A stretch of 63,478 bases of DNA, counting the filler. It is 6 parts of 6 records of this genome, joined end to end, with 100 filler letters (N's around TTAATTAATTAA, not from the genome) between each part and the next. Parts side by side here need not be neighbours in the genome. Positions count along the whole stretch, not along the records: positions 58,437 to 63,478 come from SRR20825006_1983; 5 more parts are not named here. One strand, 5' to 3'. The notes below the pieces were generated by a model. That model made no database searches, was not told the DNA's origin, and worked only from the letters and a program-made list of their open reading frames with translations. The translations under genes were made by a program, and so were the position numbers. Shown piece after piece: positions 52,904-63,478 of the stretch (positions are counted from its first letter, which is position 1; each line of letters starts with the position of its first letter).

Positions 52904-55900
52904 TTGCAAAAGAAAGAAGTAAATCAGCTGGCGACGCGGGCGGATACGAAACACTATCCTCTCACGTCACCTCAAGCTGCCATTTGGCTCGATCTGGCCA
53001 AAGGCCGTGATCCTGCACAATATAATGTGTGCAATATTCTCGAGTTTGACGGCGATCTCGACATTGCCTTGTTGCACCAAGCCATCGCCCAAAGTGATCG
53101 CGAAAATGATGCTCTGCGGCTGCGCTTTTCAAACCACGAAGGCCAGATCACGCAATTCTTTGCCGATGAATGCCTCCCAACCGATTTTGATGTCATTGAT
53201 CTACAATCCTCTGATGATCCAAATGCCGCGGCCTTGGTCGAAGTCAGGGCCTTGCAAAGCAGACAGCTTTCTTTTGAAACTGGCGAAAACTGTCGCCATC
53301 GGCTGTTGCAGTTAAGCAAAAAGCTTTTCTGGTGGGTCCGCGTTTATCATCACATTGTGATTGACGGTTATGCCGGTCATTTGATCGCCGAACGGGTTGC
53401 GTCGATCTATAACGCACTTCAAACAAAGACAGCCATTCCCAACTGCCCGTTTCATTCCTACCGCACTTTCGTTGAAGCTGACGCCACCTATGCGAACAGC
53501 CCCGCATATCAACGTGATCTGACCTATTGGCGCGACCGCCTGACACCTGACAAGCAACCATCGCAATTCTCGGCCCGTCCAACCCCCAAGACGCAAAAAA
53601 ATGCGCAATTTACACGCATGTTGGACAGCGAAACACTGCAGGCACTGCAGAACGTGTCGCGCGCATTTGGCATGTCATCCGCGGCAATGACGATGAGCAT
53701 TTTTGCCATCTTGCTTGGACGGATTACACATCAAAATCATCCTGTCTGGAATATGCCAATCCTTAACCGGCTTGGAAAGGCAGAACGAAACACGCCGGGC
53801 ACATTCACCTGTGTTGTGCCCTATGATGTTAATTTGGATGAACACAAAAGTTTATCGGAATTAGGCAAAGCCATCCTTGCCAAAACCCGCGGTGATCTTC
53901 GCCATGCCCGGATAACCCCAGTACGTTTGCGTATGGCAAATCTTGGCGTGAAAAGCCTTTCTGCATCTGGTGCCCTGTTCAACAGTCTTGATGCGGCGAA
54001 ACCGATTACGTTTGCCGGTCTCTCAACCCGGTTCATTAACATTCAGGTCGGCCCGGCAAGTGACATCAACCTCGCATTCTTTAGCGAAACCAGCGCCCCA
54101 AACAACTCAAGAGCTGAATTGATCTGGCAATTCGATGCCAATCGCATTGATGAGCAGGCCGTCACACAGATTGCCGATCAGTTTGAACTGATCCTTGCAT
54201 CGGTATTGGCAAATCCCGATCAAGATATCGACACCATTGGCAGTGCTGTTGATATTGATCAGGAAAGCCTTGGTCTAACGGGCCAGACACTCGGCACGCC
54301 ATCCATCCCGTCCCGCCCTGCAGTCACGACAGAACTCGTTTCGCAGGATGAAAAGCAGCTTGCCGCTGATATCACCCGAATCTGGACCGGATTGATCAGG
54401 AATGACGATATTGGGCCAGACGATAATGTTATCGAAGCGGGGGCGCATTCACTGTTGCTGCCGCGTGCTCAATATGCGCTGTCGCAACGAATTGGGCGTG
54501 ATATTTCGCTGGATGAAATTGTTGAAAACCCGACCATAAACGCCCTGACAAGGCATATCTGCGATACCTATTCCGATATCAAGACCGTATTGGCCAATGC
54601 CGATCAAGATATAGACGCGGCAAACGGCCTAGCGCGCACAAACACTGTTGATATCGCGCGCCACCGTATTGCTGAAATTACCTCGCATGATCGCCAACAG
54701 CTTGTTGCAGACATTACCGGCATCTGGGCCGGATTGCTTGAATATGATGATATCGGGCCGGACGACAATCTGATCGAAGCAGGGGCACATTCGATGCTTC
54801 TGCCCCGCGTACAGTATGAGATTTCGCAACTTTTCGGGATTGAATTGTCCCTGCTTGAGATTGTCGAATGCGCAACAATTAACGCCATCGCAGATCGTAT
54901 CTGTGACACCTACCCCAATTTCAAGACCGTCCGTGACAGTGCCATTTCTGCCGCCCTCGTGTCAGAAGATGCACATGCTTCCGATCCATTTTTGGCAAAA
55001 AAACTGCCTGTCATCTGGCCAAATGGCCTTCACATATTGCCGTTCAGCGCCACGACCCGCAATGAACTCGACAAAATCACAGAACAGGCTTGTGCACAAC
55101 TCAGTGACGATGGGGCAACTGACCGGCTCACCATTCTGGCGACGCAACTGGCAGCCGCCGCGGCCTATCCAGAACGTGTAGCGATCGTTGCGAACGATAC
55201 GGCATCAGCCATCGACGCGCTTACGTCCAATCGCTCGACAAGGCGCATTGACGCGAGCCTTTCGGGTGATGCTGTCAAAACCTTTTTGCTGTTTCCCGGA
55301 CAAGGATCGCAACGTCCGGGAATGGCACGTGCGCTGTTTGACGTCGACCCGGATTGCGCAAAACTGATTAATCTCGCCTGCAAGAAAGTTGCCGGTTTTT
55401 CCGGGCCGGTTGACCTGCGTGATTTGCTTTTATCGCCAGATCAAACACCGGCTGAAACAGCAAAGCTTGCTGGCACCGACTATGCCCAGCCAGCTTTGTT
55501 TATCTTTGAATATGCGCTTGCAAGCTGGCTGATGCTGTTTGGCGTCACACCATCAGGTCTGGCTGGACATAGTATCGGTGAATATGTTGCAGCCTGCATT
55601 GCAGGCGTCATGTCCTTTGAAGATGCGCTGCGCCTTGTTGTGATGCGCGGCAAGTTGATGAGTCAAACGGCACCCGGTGCGATGTATGCCCTTTCCATGC
55701 CCGAAGAGGAGGTCACAGGTCTTCTGGCACAATTTGGCCCGGGACTTTCTTTGGCCGCGAAAAACGGACCGCGCCAGCATGTGATTTCCGGTGATATTGC
55801 ATCGGTTGATCGCCTTGAAAACCAACTGAAGGCTGCCGGAAAAACTGGCAAACGTCTGATGGTTTCGCGTGCTTTCCATTCTGATCTGATGAACCCGATC

Positions 55901-58336
55901 CTCGCGGCATTTCGTGACGAATTTGCATCTATCACCCTGCATCCACCGCAAATCCCGATCCAGTCGAACCTGACGGGGGCATGGCTGACGGATGAAGATG
56001 CGACAAATCCCGACTATTGGATGCGTCATTTGCGTCATGGCGTCCGGTTTGCAGATAACATTGACGGCCTTTTGTCATCCTCGCCCGACGCCTTGTTTAT
56101 CGAATGCGGTCCGGGCAATACGGCGACCCGTCTGGCGGCTGTAAACGGCGTCAAGGTAGAACAGTGCATTGCCCTGCAACCTGCCTCAAACCCCGAAAGC
56201 ATGGAGCAGAAAATATTTGCGGGACAGGATGCGCTGGCCCTTGGTCTTGCTGCTATCTGGGCAAAGGGGACTGCGTTTGCGGCATCTCCCGAAAATGCGA
56301 TCCCCACGTCAAAAGCCCCCCCACTTCGGCATGTCAGCACGCAAAAGCGGGAAGTTGGCCCCTCAGGTACCACGGATGGTGCAAAGCCCGGCCCCATCAT
56401 TGCGACTTTCCCGGCCCATCCCGCAGTCGAAGGGCAATGGTTGGCCCGTCGCGATAAGCCCGCAGACAACAGCCATCACATTATTGTCAGCTTCCGCTTG
56501 CCGCAAAATACCAGTTTTGAGGATGCAAAACGCGCCCTTGAGCAGGTCATAGACCGCAATGACGCCCTGCGTTCCACATTTGACGAACACCAAGGCCAGC
56601 TCCTGCAGCGCGTCCACGCCACGATGCCGGTCCCGATCGGCCGACTAAATCGCGTTGAAGATATCCGAATTGGCCTGTTTGATCTGCGCACCGGCCCCTT
56701 AGCCCGATTTGGCTATGTTGAACAAAGCAGTTCGCGGCCGTCGCTTTTGGCACTTGCCATTGACCACATGTGCTTTGACGGACAATCCACCGCGATGCTG
56801 GAGCGCGCGTTTCTCGACGCGCTAGACGGCATTGAGAAACCCCGTCCTGAAACGGCACAATCAGTTGCCGAACGCAGACATAAAGATTTGGCTGGCATCC
56901 GCGGGCAATCTGGAAAGAATTTCTGGAAAGAACACAGTGAATTGCTACTGGCACCCCCATTGCCCGGCGGATCGGATGCGACACATCCCGGCCATTCCAC
57001 CCGTCTGTTTAAAAAGCTGAGCGACGAACAGGTTGACGCCTTTACAACGCTCTCGCGCCGCATCAAAAGCGCCACGCCAACGGCGATCTGGAACGCGCTT
57101 ATCATGGCCGTAATTGCAAGGCACAAGGAACATAACATCGCGGTTCTCGGGCAGCCGTTTTCCGGGCGGCATGGTCGAGACGACCAACAGGTCATCGGTT
57201 GCTTTGCCAACGTTTTGCCAATTGCGATCAAGCTCGACATGCAAGCAGGTTTTGATGTGTTGGTCGGTAATGTTGGCCGTGAAATGCTGTCGATGCTTGA
57301 TGTGCAGGATTATCCGTTATCGCATGTGATCAAAGACCTGTCACAGAAGGCACAGGCGCCGGTCAATCTGCCGTTTGACGCGGTCAGCACCATCGAATTC
57401 AACGAAAATATTGACGACATAAGCGATATTGATTTTGGGGCGGGAAAGTTCCCCTTGATGGCAACACTTCTTAAATGTGGTGCCGGATCATTTATCGTCA
57501 TTGAACATCAAACGTCGCTATATGGCCCTCGATGGGCGGAACGATTTGCCGAACGACTGGTCTCGTTCCTTGGCAAACTGGCCAAAGAACCAGGAAAACC
57601 ACTAGGCGAAATTGATATTCTGCCCGATGAAGAACGGCAGATTTTGATCGAAGACCTCAACGCGACACATTCCCGATATCCACGTGACACGGGACTTGGC
57701 GAATTGCTGGCACGGCGCATTCAAGACCCGACATGTGCCAACCGCATCGCGATTGACGATGGCAAAACCAAAATCAGTTACCCCGAACTCGGAAGTCTTC
57801 TTTCCAGATTGGCGCGCAAGCTTGATGAAATCGGTGTCCAACCCGGTCAAACTGTTGCCCTTGCAACAGAACGCAATATGGATGCGGTTATCGCCCTGCT
57901 AGCGCTGGTCTGGCATGGCAATGTCTATCTTCCCATCGACAAATCCCTGCCGGCAAAGGCGATTGCCGATCTGATGGAAGAATGCGGCGCCAAAACGCTT
58001 CTGTGCAGCCCGCATGAACAAGACCGATTGGCGGAACTTTCGACACGTTTCACCCTTGCCCCGCTACCGACCGCAGACATGGATGCGGACACAGACGCAA
58101 CAACAGCCAAATTCAACCTCCCTGCGAAACGGTTGGGGGATGACCTTGCTTATGTCATGTTTACATCCGGATCGACGGGCAAACCAAAAGGCGTTCTGGT
58201 GCCCAACCGGGCCGTTGCCCGCCTTGTTGTGAACAACCCCGCTTTGCCATTTGATGAAAACGACGTCGTAGCACAAGCCGCGTCCCTTGGCTTTGATGCG
58301 GCAACGCTTGAAATCTGGGCACCGCTTCTGAATGGC
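52904..58336 (+). CDS. Hybrid NRPS with domain order C-T-T-AT-C-A (3' truncated)
   Basis: C1 HHIVIDG (53348); T1 GAHSL (Ser 54449); T2 GAHSM (Ser 54791); AT FPGQGSQ, GHSIG (Ser 55571), RAFHS; C2 DHMCFDG (56762); A YVMFTSGSTGKPKG, FDAATLEIW. Confidence 0.9.
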
Positions 58337-58436
58337 NNNNNNNNNNNNNNNNNNNNNNNNNNNNNNNNNNNNNNNNNNNNTTAATTAATTAANNNNNNNN
58401 NNNNNNNNNNNNNNNNNNNNNNNNNNNNNNNNNNNN
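58337..58436. other. Artificial contig spacer
   Basis: N-run with TTAATTAATTAA. Confidence 0.99.
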
Positions 58437-60884
58437 GTGTACCGTAAAGCATGGAAAATGTGGGGCGGTGGTCCAGATAGTAAACTTTGGAAGTCCACAG
58501 ATGGTGGAGAAACCTGGACAGACCTCACCGAAAATCCAGGGATGCCCGAAGGCCCGATCGGTAAGATTGGGGTAACGGTTTCCCCAGCAGATTCTAACAG
58601 GGTTTGGGCCATTGTAGAGGCCAATGAAGGCGGTGTTTTCCGTTCCGATGACGCTGGCAAGACGTGGGAACTCACCAACAACGAACGTAAACTGAGACAA
58701 CGTGCCTTTTACTATTCCAGAATTTATGCCGATCCCAAAGACAAAGATGTGGTGTATGGCCTAAATGTAGGATTCTTTAAATCCACCGATGGAGGAAAAA
58801 CATTTGACGAAAAAATTAACACCCCACATAGCGACAACCATGATCTGTGGATCGACCCAAACGACCCTGATAGAATGATCAGTTCCAATGACGGAGGTGG
58901 CGTGGTAAGCATCAACGGAGGAAAAACCTGGACCGAACAGGACTATCCAACCTCGCAGTTTTATCATGTAATGGCCACTAGCGATGTTCCGTATCACGTG
59001 GCAGGTGCCCAGCAGGACAACTCTACCTTGGCCATGCCAAGCGAAGGATGGGACTTTATGCAAGCAAGGGGGCCAAGTTCCGAATGGTACTACGCCGTTG
59101 GTGGCGGGGAAAGTGGTTGGATCACACAAAGTCCGACCAACCCCGATATTTTTTATGCAGGAAGCCAAGGAGCACTTTTGACAAGGTATGACCGAAGCAA
59201 TGGTCAGACCAGAGATATTCAAGTATATCCCCGATTTTTCTCTGGTGAACCTGCAAGTGCCCTTCCCGAGCGTTGGCAATGGACGTTCCCCATTATGTTC
59301 GCTCCCAAAGACCCCAATGTAATGTACACCTGCTCCCAACACGTTTGGAAAACAACAAATGATGGACAGACATGGAAAAAAATCAGTCCGGACCTTACCT
59401 ATGCCGACCCGGAAACCTTGGGCAAGACGGGGGGTATTTTAACCATGGACATGAACGGACCAGAGATTTATGCCACCGTATTCGCTTTGGCTCCATCCCA
59501 TCACGACATCAACACCATTTGGGCAGGTTCTGACGACGGCAAAATTCACATCACAAGAGATGGTGGTGAAAACTGGGAGGATATTACCCCAGAAAATCTA
59601 CCAAAATATTCAAGGGTGAGCATTATTGAAGAGTCCATCCACAATCCTGGAACTTTATATGTGGCGGCCAACAGATACCAAGTGGATGACAGGGCGCCCT
59701 ACGTTTTTAAAACACACGATTACGGAAAAACCTGGACCAAGATCATTACAGGAATAAAAGACGGTCACTTTGCCAGGGCAATCCGTGAAGACCATAAAAG
59801 AGAAGGACTACTGTTTTTGGGGACCGAACACGGAGTGTATTTTTCCATAAACGATGGTGCCGAATGGCAGTCGCTTCAATTGAACTTGCCCGATACCCCG
59901 ATCAGGGATTTGGTGATCAAGGACAACGATGTGGTTCTGGGCTCCCACGGCAGGGGATTTTGGATCTTGGACGACATTCAGCCTTTTAGGGAGTATTCAG
60001 AAGATTTAAAAAGTGAAAAAAATGTCTTGTTCAAACCCTCCGATGCCATCAGAGGTATTTACAACGCCAATTTCCAGTACTATTTGGAAAAAGAGGTGGA
60101 TACAGTCACCTTTTCTATTTTCGATGCTAACAATAACCTCATCGAATCCTTTGGCGGCAACAAACCAAAATATGAAGATTCTGGCGAATCTTCCTGGTGG
60201 AGCCGTTTTAGCAGTACCAAGCCCACTACGGCAAAAGGCATCAACACTTTTACTTGGAACTTGAGGTATCCTGGACCCACTACTTTTGATGGTATCATTA
60301 TTTGGGGAGCTTCGGCCACCACAGGACCAAAAGCACCACTGGGCACCTATACCGTGCAAATGAAGGTGGGCCCTGAAGTCATCAAAAGCTATCCATTTAA
60401 AATTGAAATGGACCCCAACTTGAAAGGGATTACAGCGGAAGACCTTCAAAAGCAATTTGAATTGGCTTCCAAAATCACCAAGAAAGCGACCATCGCCAAC
60501 GAAGCGGTCATTCAAATAAGAAGCATCCGCAAACAATTGGATAGTTTGGGCAAGGGGATTTCCAGTAGAAAGTTCACAAAGCTAACTGAAGATTTCATGG
60601 AGACCTTGACCGAAATCGAGAATGATCTTTATCAAACCAAAAACCAATCAGGACAAGACCCATTGAACTTCCCCATCAAATTGAACAATAGGTTCAATGC
60701 CCTGCAGAGAAGTATTGAAAACGGGGACGCCAGACCAACGGATGCCGCTTATGTGGTATACGATGAACTTGTTGCCGAGTTGGAGACTCACATGGCCAAA
60801 CTGAACAGCACATTGGATAAAGAGCTTCCAAAAGTGAATGCTGTTTTGGAAGAAAACGGAATTTCAACCATCAAGGCCCAATAG
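58437..60884 (+). CDS. BNR/Asp-box (VPS10-like) beta-propeller protein, putative glycosyl hydrolase (5' truncated)
   Basis: Many S/TxDGGxTW repeats, RQRAFYYS, DNHDLWIDP, GGGESG, SHGRGFWILDD; C-terminal coiled region QDPLNFPIKLNN. Confidence 0.88.
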   Translation: MYRKAWKMWGGGPDSKLWKSTDGGETWTDLTENPGMPEGPIGKIGVTVSPADSNRVWAIVEANEGGVFRSDDAGKTWELTNNERKLRQRAFYYSRIYADPKDKDVVYGLNVGFFKSTDGGKTFDEKINTPHSDNHDLWIDPNDPDRMISSNDGGGVVSINGGKTWTEQDYPTSQFYHVMATSDVPYHVAGAQQDNSTLAMPSEGWDFMQARGPSSEWYYAVGGGESGWITQSPTNPDIFYAGSQGALLTRYDRSNGQTRDIQVYPRFFSGEPASALPERWQWTFPIMFAPKDPNVMYTCSQHVWKTTNDGQTWKKISPDLTYADPETLGKTGGILTMDMNGPEIYATVFALAPSHHDINTIWAGSDDGKIHITRDGGENWEDITPENLPKYSRVSIIEESIHNPGTLYVAANRYQVDDRAPYVFKTHDYGKTWTKIITGIKDGHFARAIREDHKREGLLFLGTEHGVYFSINDGAEWQSLQLNLPDTPIRDLVIKDNDVVLGSHGRGFWILDDIQPFREYSEDLKSEKNVLFKPSDAIRGIYNANFQYYLEKEVDTVTFSIFDANNNLIESFGGNKPKYEDSGESSWWSRFSSTKPTTAKGINTFTWNLRYPGPTTFDGIIIWGASATTGPKAPLGTYTVQMKVGPEVIKSYPFKIEMDPNLKGITAEDLQKQFELASKITKKATIANEAVIQIRSIRKQLDSLGKGISSRKFTKLTEDFMETLTEIENDLYQTKNQSGQDPLNFPIKLNNRFNALQRSIENGDARPTDAAYVVYDELVAELETHMAKLNSTLDKELPKVNAVLEENGISTIKAQ

Positions 60885-60921
60885 GGCCTGATGGTTTTTA
60901 AAAATCAGACTCATTCTAAAT

Positions 60922-60929
60922 TAAGTTTG
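60922..60929 (+). promoter_or_regulatory. Possible Bacteroidota -7 promoter element
   Basis: TAAGTTTG matches TAnnTTTG, 45 nt upstream of the His-rich ORF; no clear -33 TTTG. Confidence 0.35.
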
Positions 60930-60974
60930 GTCATCTATGGTGCCGCGTATTATTCTTAATTTTACGTTGTCAGG

Positions 60975-61373
60975 ATGAATAAAATTATCACCATAGGGAT
61001 ATCCCTGCTCATTCTGCTCCAAGGAGCCAACATTCATTTTAAGGATTTGGTGGAACTTGGGCAACTTTTTGAGCATTACCAGTTCCACAATGAGGAATAT
61101 GGTGATGACTTTACGGTCTTTGTTTCCAAACACTACGGAGAACTCAAAGCTTCGCACAGCGAAAAGCACCAAGAAGAGCAAAAAGAGCATGAAAAATTGC
61201 CTTTTCAGCATCAATCCCATTGTTCGCAACCGCATGTTTTTGTTCTTGGAGCGGATAATTTTATCAATTCCCGTTCTGAAATTCCAGTTACAGAAAAAGG
61301 AAATTTCCACTATCAAATATCGTATTCCCATATTTGGGGAGACAACCCTTTTCAACCGCCCAAACACGCATAA
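60975..61373 (+). CDS. His-rich exported small protein, putative metal-sensing leader of cusA
   Basis: 132 aa; N-terminal signal/TM; 13 His including HQSHC; ends FQPPKHA. Confidence 0.8.
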   Translation: MNKIITIGISLLILLQGANIHFKDLVELGQLFEHYQFHNEEYGDDFTVFVSKHYGELKASHSEKHQEEQKEHEKLPFQHQSHCSQPHVFVLGADNFINSRSEIPVTEKGNFHYQISYSHIWGDNPFQPPKHA

Positions 61374-61449
61374 TTCATAGTATTTCAGCTTTGCTGAACA
61401 CTTCTATCAAGCCTTATTCTATTTAATAATGCTATCATACTCTATGAAT
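61373..61449 (+). promoter_or_regulatory. Intergenic RNA stem predicted to mask the cusA initiation region
   Basis: ATTCATAG (61373-61380) is complementary to CTATGAAT (61442-61449), ending 2 nt before ATG 61451; inner hairpin TTCAGC-TTT-GCTGAA (61384-61398). Confidence 0.6.
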
Positions 61450-61450
61450 C

Positions 61451-63478
61451 ATGTTTTCAAAAATTATCAACTTTAGTGTAAAGAACAAGTTCATTGTTCT
61501 TCTGTTTACAGCGGCCATAGCCCTTGTTGGGTTATTTTCGCTATCACAAATACCCATTGGTGCTGTACCCGATATCACCAATAACCAAGTACAGGTATTA
61601 ACCACTTCTAATCGTCTTTCCACACAGGACATGGAAAAGTTCGTCACCTATCCCGTTGAGTTGGAAATGGCGAACCTGCCCGGTGTAAAAGAAATAAGGT
61701 CGGTTTCCAAATTTGGCCTATCGGTGGTCACCATTGTCTTTGAGGACGATATGGGCACCTATCTGCCAAGACAGCTCATTGCCGAAAAGATAAAATCAGC
61801 ATCCAGTCGTATCCCAGAGGGTTTTGGTAGCCCAGAAATGGGACCAATTACCACTGGTCTGGGCGAAATCTATCAATATATTCTGGATGTTGAGCCCGAG
61901 TACAAGGACCAATACAATTCCACGGAGCTTAGGACCATTCAGGATTGGATTGTAAAACGTCAGCTTTCCGGTATTCCTGGTGTAGTCGAGGTAAATACTT
62001 GGGGGGGGCATCTTAAACAATACGAAGTTGCCATCCAGACCCAAAAGCTTAACGCTTTCAATATAACCGCAAGGGAGATTTTCACCGCATTGGAAAAAAA
62101 TAACAGTGTCACTGGTGGAGGTTATATTGAAAAAGTAAACCAAGCCTATTTTATTCGCGGGGAAGGTTTGGTGAGCAGCCTCAAGGACATCGAGAATATC
62201 GTCGTAACCACAAGGAACAGCATCCCTATATATATTAAGGATGTGGCCAAAGTTGGTTTTGGAAGCGCCCCCCGTTTTGGAGCCATCACTGGAAATGGAG
62301 AGGGCGAAAAAGTGCTCGGCCAGATCATGATGCTCAAGGATGCCGATTCCAAACGCGTTATCGAAGCGGTCAAAGAACGAGTGGCCGCCATCTCGGCATC
62401 GCTACCCGAAGGGGTTTACATCAACCCATTTTTGGACCGTAGCGAACTTATCGGAAGAACTACCTTCACGGTTACCGAGAACTTGGTGTTGGGTTGTTTG
62501 ATCGTGATTTTCGTGGTGGTCCTGTTGTTGGGCAACTGGCGGTCAGGACTTGTTGTAGCCTCCGTAATTCCGCTTTGTTTGCTTTTTGCCCTCACCTTAA
62601 TGAACATTTTTGGGGTCGATGCCAACTTGTTGAGCCTTGGGGCCATCGACTTTGGTATCATTATAGACGGAGCAGTCATCATAGTCGAGTACATTGCGTT
62701 TCAAATTACCCGACGGCAAACCGAACTTGTTAATCTGGACAAAGAAGCCACACAATCCATAAAGGATAAAATAACTGTGGAGGGAGCCACCAAAATGATG
62801 AACTCCGCCGTATTTGGACAGCTCATTATTTTGATTGTTTTCATTCCGATCCTATCACTCAGCGGTGTGGAAGGTAAAATGTTCAAACCCATGGCACTTA
62901 CCTTCAGTTTTGCCCTTTTGGGAGCTGTTTTGTTCTGCTTTACCTACGTGCCCGTGGCTTCCGCATTATTTTTAAAGCCCACCAAAGAATCGTCCAAGAA
63001 CATCTCCACCCGTTTGGTCAACTGGATCAACAAGCAATACGAGCCCGTTATCGAATGGGCCATGAAAAGCAAAAAATTGGTACTTTCCATCGCTGCGGCT
63101 TTGTTGGTCGGAGCCATTTTGCTGTTCTCCTCAATGGGTGGGGAATTTGTACCTACCCTGGACGAGGGTGATTTTGTGATTCAACCTGTATTAAAAACGG
63201 GGACTTCCTTGGCAAAGACCGTGGAGACGACCACCAAAATCGAAAAAATCCTCCTAGACCAATTTCCTGAAGTGAAACAGGTGGTAAGCCGTATCGGTGC
63301 AGCAGAAGTACCCACCGACCCCATGTCCATGGAGGAGAGCGATGTGATCATTTCCCTAAAACCTAAAGATGAATGGGTCTCTGCGGAAACCAAGGATGAA
63401 CTGGCCGACAAGTTTAAGGAAGCCCTAGCCGTGATACCTGGAATGGAAGTAGAATTTACCCAGCCCATTGAAATGCGC
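61451..63478 (+). CDS. CusA/CzcA family heavy-metal efflux RND transporter (runs off window; absent from ORF track)
   Basis: Manual translation: MFSKIINFSVKNK...IPIGAVPDITNNQVQV; RSVSKFGLSVVT; ANLLSLGAIDFGIIIDGAVIIVE; GVEGKMFKPMA; GGEFVPTLDEGD. Confidence 0.95.
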   Translation, partial: MFSKIINFSVKNKFIVLLFTAAIALVGLFSLSQIPIGAVPDITNNQVQVLTTSNRLSTQDMEKFVTYPVELEMANLPGVKEIRSVSKFGLSVVTIVFEDDMGTYLPRQLIAEKIKSASSRIPEGFGSPEMGPITTGLGEIYQYILDVEPEYKDQYNSTELRTIQDWIVKRQLSGIPGVVEVNTWGGHLKQYEVAIQTQKLNAFNITAREIFTALEKNNSVTGGGYIEKVNQAYFIRGEGLVSSLKDIENIVVTTRNSIPIYIKDVAKVGFGSAPRFGAITGNGEGEKVLGQIMMLKDADSKRVIEAVKERVAAISASLPEGVYINPFLDRSELIGRTTFTVTENLVLGCLIVIFVVVLLLGNWRSGLVVASVIPLCLLFALTLMNIFGVDANLLSLGAIDFGIIIDGAVIIVEYIAFQITRRQTELVNLDKEATQSIKDKITVEGATKMMNSAVFGQLIILIVFIPILSLSGVEGKMFKPMALTFSFALLGAVLFCFTYVPVASALFLKPTKESSKNISTRLVNWINKQYEPVIEWAMKSKKLVLSIAAALLVGAILLFSSMGGEFVPTLDEGDFVIQPVLKTGTSLAKTVETTTKIEKILLDQFPEVKQVVSRIGAAEVPTDPMSMEESDVIISLKPKDEWVSAETKDELADKFKEALAVIPGMEVEFTQPIEMR

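Follow-up and report, generated by a model that had tools for sequence, protein, structure and literature searches.

A small His-rich reading frame with a conserved Gln-Pro-Pro end and a stop-to-start RNA helix ahead of cusA-like genes: a candidate exported leader in Flavobacteriales

The locus and its features

The DNA examined in this study, referred to as the window, is 63,478 nucleotides (nt) long and carries towards its right-hand end a small open reading frame (ORF) of 132 amino acids (aa), which is separated by 77 nt from the start codon (ATG at 61451) of a CusA/CzcA-type resistance-nodulation-division (RND) efflux pump gene. The original prediction, drawn up from the letters of the window, had taken this ORF for a putative metal-sensing leader on which a pausing ribosome would open an RNA stem covering the pump start. 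Here, the ORF, its C-terminal Gln-Pro-Pro (QPP) motif, and a helix pairing the ORF stop with the cusA start were compared across related genomes, and the observation of all three was confirmed to lie far beyond chance. The features needed for the following sections are listed below.

60975..61373, + strand: small leader-type ORF, 132 aa, stop included
60975..61031, + strand: predicted N-terminal hydrophobic export signal or membrane anchor (residues 1-19; AlphaFold2 (AF2) helix 2-17, Q16 conserved)
61038..61211, + strand: His-rich helical domain, EH..xH..YGD..SKHYG..H..H.EH..LPF (residues 22-79)
61212..61301, + strand: spacer, predicted disordered (residues 80-109), variable in sequence and conserved in length
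61302..61364, + strand: C-terminal module N-F-H-Y ... F-Q-P-P-K (residues 110-130), from a PP-anchored gapless profile
61353..61361, + strand: QPP codons, followed by K-H-A and the stop TAA at 61371-61373
61368..61380, + strand: closing helix, 5' arm, comprising GCA as the last sense codon, the stop TAA, and 7 nt more, from fold and comparison
61384..61398, + strand: inner hairpin 1, 6 base pairs, from the fold
61410..61433, + strand: inner hairpin 2, 8 base pairs with a bulge, from the fold
61442..61454, + strand: 3' arm of the closing helix, spanning -9 to -2, the cusA AUG, and base +4, where codon 2 begins
61451..63478, + strand: RND pump gene of CusA/CzcA type (PF00873 and TIGR00914), incomplete at the window end

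The ORF proved to be as it had been described, running from 60975 to 61373 with 13 His among its 132 residues, and both HSEKH and EHEKLPFQHQSHCSQPH were present in its translation; likewise, the QPP codons lie at 61353-61361, three codons before the stop. The one Cys of the protein is not conserved in the family. The downstream gene matched PF00873 with an E-value (E) of 7e-163, and TIGR00914 with 695.8 bits at a cut-off of 701.45, the latter for a gene that is cut by the window end. An antisense ORF at 60921-61367 was considered and rejected, as the codon pattern on the + strand indicated selection on the + frame.

The C-terminal motif and its fixed distance to the His-rich domain

Conservation at the level of codons was assessed in 80 rows, made up of the window and 79 genome loci; 80 had been fetched, and L042 was dropped because a cusA start could not be recognised in it. 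Q, P, and P were each kept in all 80 rows while synonymous codons were chosen freely (CAA 38, CAG 42; for the first Pro, CCG 25, CCT 24, CCC 16, and CCA 15), and a K or R directly followed QPP in 78 of them. The final residue was variable (A, S, V, T, I, or L), with a codon of the form NCA or NNA in 73 of 80 rows. This last pattern points to a constraint on the RNA, because it is what pairing to the cusA AUG predicts, and on these codon choices the C-terminal motif appears to be selected as a peptide and the last codon as RNA.

The conservation of a terminal xPP, which had been proposed as a check of the stalling model, held beyond these loci: among 149 cluster representatives listed, xPP was found 1-8 residues from the end in 136. 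QPP was present in 122 of the representatives listed, followed by three residues in 99, two in 11, four in eight, six in three, and one in a single case; a residue other than Q preceded PP in 14, and a terminal PP was missing from 13, mostly fragments. The distance from PP to the stop, the subject of a second proposed check, is fixed at three codons, or two in some clades.

When 255 members were anchored on PP without gaps, further positions emerged, namely N at -18, F at -17 (202 members), and Y at -15 (240), with His or an aromatic residue between the last two at -16, then Y at -11 and S at -10, and, near the end, F at -2 (209), Q at -1 (240), and K or R at +2 (232). The gapless aromatic motif NF[FHY]Y thereby stands 15-18 residues before PP, and the module NF[FHY]Y ... 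FQPPK is a candidate, judged on this profile, for a motif that interacts with the ribosomal exit tunnel and causes a pause. The spacer between the His-rich domain and the NF[FHY]Y block is the least conserved stretch of the protein, yet its length is fixed: counted from the L of LPF to the first P of PP, 222 of 242 members have 52-54 residues, and the extremes are 50 and 56.

A helix joins the leader stop to the pump start

In the window, a closing helix of 12 pairs joins 61368-61380 to 61442-61454 and includes the cusA AUG. The stem as originally drawn, pairing ATTCATAG (61373-61380) with CTATGAAT (61442-61449, that is, -9 to -2 of the ATG at 61451), was recovered, and the helix was found to extend outwards from it by GCAT (61368-61371) pairing with ATGT (61451-61454), which pairs the first base of the stop (T) with that of the cusA AUG (A). 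The location given for the stem was thus right as to the pairs at -9 to -2 but has to be corrected, since the stem is anchored on the last codon and the stop and masks the AUG itself. Similarly, a hairpin does lie inside the loop as claimed, but there are two (61384-61398 and 61410-61433) rather than one, and most relatives also have inner hairpins, of differing sequence. The single-sequence fold had a minimum free energy (MFE) of -19 kcal/mol (z = -2.5), with 2 of 200 shuffles folding as well.

The gap to cusA was 69-81 nt in 75 of the 80 rows, and the register was the same as in the window in 59 of 80. In a set of 55 non-redundant loci with this register (register 0), positions -3 to +9 were paired in 86.7% of cases, compared with 32-45% when the partner was slid. 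Covariation was evaluated on a MAFFT alignment of 45 of 79 distinct segments, restricted to register 0 and cleared of near-duplicates, shifted-register loci, and long-gap loci. RNAalifold returned the outer helix from this alignment; its 13 named pairs were paired in 86.6% of cases versus 31.5-44.9% when slid, and five of them showed changes on both sides, amounting to 25 cells. None of 500 shuffles matched the observed percentage paired, the number of cells with changes on both sides, or the covariation score. The number of pairs changing on both sides was reached by 12 of 500 shuffles, and the number of further pair types by 248 of 500, which makes that last measure uninformative. The clearest compensatory changes were TA to CG at one pair in nine sequences and AU to UA in eight. 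Covariation is modest overall because much of the helix is conserved in sequence, containing as it does a stop and a start codon.

For a wider set of 106 loci, the 80 rows were joined by 26 of 30 order-level loci, leaving out two duplicates of species already present, one locus without a recognisable cusA start (L115), and one with an intervening gene (L117). At least six pairs between the stop region and the start region were formed in the MFE folds of 98 of the 106 loci, versus 248 of 2120 dinucleotide shuffles (12%), with a median fold-energy z of -3.5. Together with the compensatory changes, this bears out the call for conservation of the stem by covariation. It was also considered that the helix might be a by-product of the CATAA/TTATG palindrome arising from a stop and a start codon; this was rejected, as the compensatory changes lie further in and other clades keep the helix in a different register.

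The position of the helix relative to the pause site was similarly constrained. Counting from base 1 of the first Pro codon, pairing in the closing helix of the MFE fold set in after 5-14 nt in 105 of 106 loci, the commonest distances being +12, +10, and +7. The footprint of a ribosome reaches about 12-16 nt beyond the first base of the codon in its P site, so that the helix start falls inside that of a ribosome paused at PP, in line with the geometry first proposed. With Pro128 and Pro129 of the window protein in the P and A sites, the front edge, on this general footprint, would therefore stand at about 61368-61372, and the GCAT/ATGT pairs, which engage the cusA AUG, would by then have come apart.

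Spread and predicted fold of the small-protein family

A word-indexed search recovered 168 relatives, nearly all of 129-135 aa, of which the named ones are annotated as 'hypothetical protein' of Flavobacteriaceae (among them Flagellimonas/Muricauda, Arenibacter, Flavivirga, and Spongiivirga). When 1.84 billion cluster representatives were searched with a profile, at least 500 clusters were recovered with E<=1e-3, of which 190 reached E<=1e-10, and in an even sample of 401 Flavobacteriales genomes the family was present in 77, some of them with 2-3 copies. Among 62 diverse members with 25-53% identity to the window protein, H38, H53, P128, and P129 were invariant, while Q16, H34, F49, Y54, G55, H72, L75, P76, and Q127 were conserved in at least 90%. 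The conserved candidates for metal ligands are H34, H38, H53, H61, and H72, with no conserved Cys, and residues 22-79 are presumed to form a metal-binding sensor.

AF2 supplied with the family alignment predicted a hydrophobic N-terminal helix (residues 2-17), which in the sequence is preceded by Lys, and helices 22-42, 46-54, and 58-73 with predicted local distance difference test (pLDDT) values of 80-88. Everything past residue 80 was of low confidence, the spacer (pLDDT <55) being predicted disordered. The protein had no match in Pfam or NCBIfam scans, CusF (PF11604) being among the families without a match in the Pfam scan, and a sequence-profile search of the PDB and a Foldseek search with the AF2 model returned nothing below E 1. 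An Rfam scan of 60850-61550 at E<=10 gave chance-level matches to eukaryotic small nucleolar RNAs and microRNAs only. In a language-model search, the nearest named clusters carried CzcI, DUF6769, DUF6660, and DUF2946, with scores of 0.90-0.92, which serve as leads only; the CzcI clusters (PF28244) made up 9 of 30 named hits, with a score of 0.92 and 114 shared features, a level below that usual within a family and hence again a lead only. DUF6769 had no match in five genomes.

DUF6660 as a sister family

One of these leads, DUF6660 (PF20365), was followed in 30 fetched loci from Flavobacteriales genomes (L124-L153). Its members are about 105 aa long, with a hydrophobic signal ending in P-C-x-D and a CSPFCxCxCCH cluster, and in 23 of 30 loci the C-terminus consists of [LFW]-Q-P-P-[KRQ] and 1-3 further residues, the remaining seven having another residue before PP. 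For 29 of the 30, the next gene downstream of DUF6660 is cusA-like. A closing helix was found in all 12 loci with a recognisable cusA start within 260 nt, beginning at the last codon and the stop, 5-12 nt after the first Pro codon.

Aligned with each other, the window family and DUF6660 gave an hhalign probability of 94.4% (E 8.9e-8, 105 columns), whereas negative controls of similar architecture gave 0.3% (window family against DUF2946-like proteins) and 0.1% (DUF6660 against DUF2946-like proteins). The DUF6660 Pfam model itself did not match the window protein at E<=1 and matched one of the 62 diverse members at E 0.7. The two families are alike in their N-terminal signal, their [LFW]QPP[KR] end, the closing helix at the stop, the position before cusA, and also in frequency (DUF6660 in 75 of 301 sampled Flavobacteriales genomes, the window family in 77 of 401). 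They differ in that the window family is longer (132 aa), has an extra helical His-rich insert, and lacks a conserved Cys; CSPFCxCxCCH is absent from it, and an alignment comparison leaves (L/S)PF as the only common part. Given the hhalign match, the common QPP end, the helix, and the position before cusA, the window ORF is best described as a longer, His-rich, distant sister of DUF6660, and a leader-plus-helix module appears from these alignments to be common to both. I found no mention of DUF6660 in a literature search. The QPP end, the helix, and the position before cusA now suggest a likely role for this uncharacterised Pfam family.

Operon context, putative promoter region, and transcripts

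Of the 80 loci, 79 have a cusA-like gene after the family ORF, as do 28 of the 30 more distant ones. In a complete Flagellimonas genome, the leader (132 aa) forms a three-gene unit with a CusA-OEP fusion (1448 aa) and a CusB (377 aa; HlyD_D23), the fusion (L088 8558-12904, - strand) combining an ACR_tran body and an outer-membrane-factor (OEP) domain in one protein. Close to this unit are genes for a ZIP transporter, a DtxR-type repressor, and a TonB receptor, and the same BNR gene as in the window is found upstream.

Two loci depart from this layout. In L117, a 163-aa membrane protein is encoded between leader and cusA, and a stop-anchored helix lies ahead of the membrane-protein gene; in L115, which has no recognisable cusA start, the leader is followed by a small lipoprotein-like ORF, a membrane protein similar to that of L117, and a cation diffusion facilitator transporter gene. 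Both membrane proteins (about 160 aa) begin with HxxxVH(L)P. In several genomes, two family members were present that are either 6-10 kilobases apart or divergently adjacent (examples being G466 C10:570205 and 576838; G521 C15:639698 and 649067; G336 C5:234625 and 235256). Such pairs suggest tandem or divergent pump operons, each with its own leader.

Upstream of the small ORF, the following features were recorded.

ending before the small ORF: BNR/sortilin-like gene, 3' part only, with a terminator-like hairpin at the gene end
60874..60889, + strand: terminator-like hairpin with a T-run, from a consensus scan only
60954..60961, + strand: TAATTTTA, a conserved TAnnTTT[AG] block, from an alignment of 18 upstream regions, 14-21 nt before the ATG across genera

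The small ORF is read as the start of a new transcription unit because the terminator-like hairpin at 60874-60889 separates it from the BNR/sortilin-like gene. The block at 60954-60961, which has the form I take to be that of the Bacteroidota -7 promoter element, is probably, judged by this likeness, such an element; if so, the 5' untranslated region would be very short, with the leader ORF beginning a few bases into the mRNA. Further upstream, AATCAGACTCATTCTAAATTA at 60903-60923 (52-72 nt before the ATG) is near-identical among Flagellimonas relatives, and could be an operator or a -33 region, or a mere effect of close relatedness.

Metatranscriptome contigs from three runs of two studies matched 60984-61446 at 100% identity, so that the leader does occur in RNA libraries, the contigs being uninformative on levels or ends. 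Contigs of the two studies start at 60984 and 60986, and one contig stops within the 3' arm of the helix, at 61446; as the end of a contig does not mark that of an RNA, these are a weak and a very weak hint, respectively. No contig in these runs extended over the cusA start, which is uninformative, as absence of contigs proves nothing.

To the right of a run of N at 58385-58436, the window is a short Bacteroidota-like stretch that comprises the 3' part of the BNR/sortilin-like gene, the small ORF, and the pump gene. To the left lies a 1826-aa ORF (52904-58384), peptide-synthetase/polyketide-like and with 54-55% guanine-cytosine (GC) content. The GC content to the right of the run is 39-50%, and the window may be a scaffold of unrelated contigs.

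Comparison with known leaders and pump accessories

CutF of Rhodobacter capsulatus (DUF2946, cutFOG operon) depends on its signal peptide, CxxxC motif, and proline-rich end alike for the opening of a stem-loop over the cutO Shine-Dalgarno sequence (PMC9973294), and its stalling at PPP depends on elongation factor P (10.1101/2025.02.05.636593). CruR (Bp2923) of Bordetella pertussis, likewise a DUF2946 protein, has a conserved spacer of 45 residues and acts through control of Rho-dependent termination (Roy et al. 2022; PMC9426467). The architecture of the window family matches that of CutF and CruR point by point, because it comprises a predicted export signal, a ligand-rich domain, a spacer of fixed length, an xPP 2-3 codons from the stop, and a helix covering the next start; sequence relatedness was undetected.

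As with CutF, the family consists of small proteins that are exported (here by prediction) and encoded by the first gene of a metal-detoxification operon, and a short intergenic stem-loop shields the initiation site of the next gene and is proposed to be melted by a paused ribosome (PMC9973294; 10.1101/2025.02.05.636593). Unlike in CutF, the ligands are His rather than CxxxC, the motif is QPP rather than PPP, and no DUF2946 match was found; the helix covers the AUG or start region, which has no Shine-Dalgarno sequence, by pairing it to the leader's own stop, whereas the CutF stem masks the Shine-Dalgarno sequence, and the gene downstream encodes an RND pump rather than a multicopper oxidase. 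CruR shares the conserved spacing from ligand motif to PP (45 residues in CruR, about 48-50 here), the N-terminal export signal (predicted here), and the position as first gene of a metal operon (PMC9426467). It differs in ending in RAPP rather than FQPP, in having CXXC in place of His, and in acting via Rho over a long intergenic region to control an importer (PMC9426467).

By rule, 5,334 'CutF-like' proteins have been listed, 19% of them from Bacteroidota, and ACR_tran (CusA/CzcA) was among their downstream neighbours; clusters 14 and 17, which have His only, adjoin HupE/UreJ (Ozturk et al. 2023; PMC9973294). With the DUF2946/CutF-like group, the window family shares PP within the last 15 residues (three residues from the end in CruR), a conserved ligand-PP spacing, the position as first gene of a metal operon, a short same-strand gap, and a start-shielding stem-loop. 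For size and signal (<150 aa with an export signal), the protein has 132 aa and the hydrophobic AF2 helix at 2-17 as a putative signal, while the listing demanded an SPI call by SignalP (PMC9973294). The Cys metal motif (CXXC or CXXXC) is absent from the window protein, which has its one non-conserved Cys. The original prediction had stated that no characterised Bacteroidota equivalent of QPP type is known; a literature search found nothing closer on stalling leaders of Bacteroidota efflux genes, and this part of the statement stands, but the idea is not new for the phylum, as CutF-like proteins of Bacteroidota, all of them still uncharacterised, are listed in PMC9973294.

DUF2946 was also sought in Bacteroidota. 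None over the cut-off was found in four Flavobacteriaceae genomes, while 201 Bacteroidota genomes gave five weak hits at E<=1e-3, two of which were over the cut-off. Four DUF2946-like ORFs were read (L084-L087); they end in RAPP or RGPP and had no hhalign relation to the window family. These proteins are 118-128 aa long and His/Cys-rich, ending in SRAPP plus two or three residues or RGPP plus four. The ORF that comes next in L085, L086, and L087 codes for a small protein that begins like a lipoprotein and contains a conserved motif of HEGHFDF type.

The RAPP-like arrest peptides, RQH members included, occur in Flavobacteriales (Fujiwara et al. 2024; PMC10987492). The window family resembles SecM, ApdA, ApdP, and the RQH peptides as a putative exported monitoring substrate with a candidate C-terminal arrest site containing Pro, conserved residues that would lie further back in the tunnel, and a stem that would open on arrest, but the gene downstream is cusA, not secA, secDF, or yidC. 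[quoted passage not shown]

A proposed cis-acting leader and its alternatives

I consider it likely that the helix places initiation at cusA under the control of translation of the leader's 3' end. The fuller reading, in which the small ORF is a cis-acting, co-translationally exported, metal-sensing leader that gates cusA translation by means of a PP pause holding the helix open, stands in my estimate about evenly between right and wrong. The anatomy, conservation, covariation, and geometry on which it is based are observations, and from them I infer the pause, the dependence on metal and its sign, and action in cis only. The comparative tests all favour a stalling leader, because xPP, the distance from PP to stop, and the covariation of the stem are conserved and the geometry fits. 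Further support comes from the predicted combination of a helical N-terminal His domain with a disordered C-terminal half, from the position of the ORF at the head of metal-efflux operons, from the same QPP[KR] end, helix, and position before cusA in DUF6660, and from CutF and CruR, which work by the same logic (PMC9973294; 10.1101/2025.02.05.636593; PMC9426467).

On the leader reading, the mRNA would start just ahead of the leader ORF, and at rest the last codon and stop of the leader would be paired with the start codon region of cusA. Initiation of cusA would then be poor, since ribosomes of Bacteroidota make no use of Shine-Dalgarno sequences and need an unstructured start region; initiation in this phylum is tuned by mRNA structure (PMC6847099). 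A ribosome translating the leader would dwell at F-Q-P-P-[K/R], three codons before the stop, owing to slow formation of the Pro-Pro bond and helped by the NF[FHY]Y segment lying 15-18 residues back in the exit tunnel. With its leading edge within the 5' arm of the helix, the paused ribosome would leave the cusA AUG free for another ribosome. During this dwell, the spacer of about 50 residues would fill the tunnel and the translocon, and the His-rich domain would have just emerged beyond the membrane, where binding of a metal (Zn, Cd, Co, and Cu being candidates) may alter the pulling force or folding and thereby the length of the pause.

Several results weigh against this reading, some of them concerning the helix. 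In 21 of the 80 rows, the 3' arm lies 6-12 nt further upstream so that the helix ends just before the AUG, and in the 12 DUF6660 loci the 3' arm usually ends 2-12 nt before it; in 8 of the 106 loci (L050, L090, L094, L095, L097, L101, L103, and L111), the MFE fold had fewer than six stop-start pairs. A pause is also not strictly required, because any ribosome finishing the ORF opens the helix. Other points concern the protein and its likeness to known arrest peptides. The His-rich domain is well conserved and predicted to be folded, and both would be usual for a protein that has a function in itself. With [FL]-Q-P-P, the family departs from the [RQH]-[AG]-P-P or RAGP of the RAPP-like peptides and SecM; most RAPP-like sequences tested did not stall (PMC10987492), and the CutF proline motif gave no stall in a LepB reporter (PMC9973294). 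PF11162 (DUF2946) matched neither the window protein at E<=1 nor any of the 62 diverse members at E<=10, and the hhalign probability of 0.3% was obtained with six Bacteroidota DUF2946-like proteins, whose profile is small and shallow because a homologue search with one such protein gave only three close copies.

The same conservation of the N-terminal domain, with its 4-5 near-invariant His and confident helical model, is what would be seen if the product were a stable, membrane-anchored or periplasmic, His-rich metal-binding accessory of the pump, comparable to CusF or CzcI, with the helix serving passive translational coupling, by which synthesis of CusA would follow that of the small protein in time and place, and QPP[KR] acting as a structural or interaction motif. 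The gene is always beside the pump, a terminating ribosome covers by geometry the whole 5' arm and makes a pause unnecessary, and CzcI-family clusters were, as a lead only, among the nearest named in the language-model search (9 of 30, score 0.92). I nevertheless regard this explanation, the strongest of the alternatives, as somewhat unlikely, given that the C-terminal 50 residues are disordered and variable yet of fixed length, that PP is fixed 2-3 codons from the stop across two families with differing ligand motifs, and that the helix start tracks the position of PP. Moreover, neither CusF nor any solved structure was matched by sequence or fold, and two members (L115 and L117) precede genes other than cusA.

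Control might alternatively be transcriptional, as in CruR, with the PP pause blocking Rho-dependent or other premature termination before cusA and metal relieving or strengthening the pause. The RNA contigs (three runs, two studies), which cover the leader and the intergenic region up to 61446, would agree with this, while missing contig cover over cusA is no evidence either way. Such a mechanism is improbable here: 75 of 80 loci leave just 69-81 nt between leader and cusA, while the intergenic region is long in CruR-type loci, with 162 nt in B. pertussis (PMC9973294; PMC9426467), the inner hairpins have no T-run, and the conserved stop-start pairing points to control of initiation. About as improbable is a helix that serves mainly RNA stability or processing, be it by stabilising the 3' end of a separate leader transcript or by offering a site to an RNase, with the peptide motif being unrelated. 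The one contig ending at 61446 inside the 3' arm would fit it, very weakly, contig ends not being RNA ends, but the helix is in register with stop and AUG in 59 of 80 loci and tied to the position of PP, and a stabiliser needs neither.

Implications

If the leader reading is true, the sensing of metals by exported nascent chains extends from Proteobacteria (CutF, CruR) to Bacteroidota, whose ribosomes make no use of Shine-Dalgarno sequences, and a new arrest-type motif, FQPP with an upstream aromatic block, would be added, along with a very simple RNA design in which a stop pairs with a start. Both the Pfam family DUF6660 and the window family, which is unannotated and numbers at least 500 sequence clusters, would gain a function, each of the two being present in about a fifth to a quarter of the Flavobacteriales genomes sampled (75 of 301 for DUF6660 and 77 of 401 for the window family), and the regulation of metal pumps would be explained at loci with no evident dedicated regulator beside the operon. 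The leader module, at about 480 nt, is compact and suited to reporter tests. Tentatively, and with more doubt than confidence, I propose that DUF6660 and the His-rich branch together may form a Bacteroidota-specific, independently arisen superfamily of exported metal-sensing arrest peptides, which would use a module of their own (NF[FHY]Y-x11-[FL]QPP[KR]) and act on Shine-Dalgarno-blind ribosomes by pairing the leader stop with the pump start. In this superfamily, the Cys branch would sense Cu or Ag and the His branch Zn, Cd, Co, or Ni, so that a convergent second invention of the CutF/CruR principle might be the main metal switch of RND pumps in marine Flavobacteriales.

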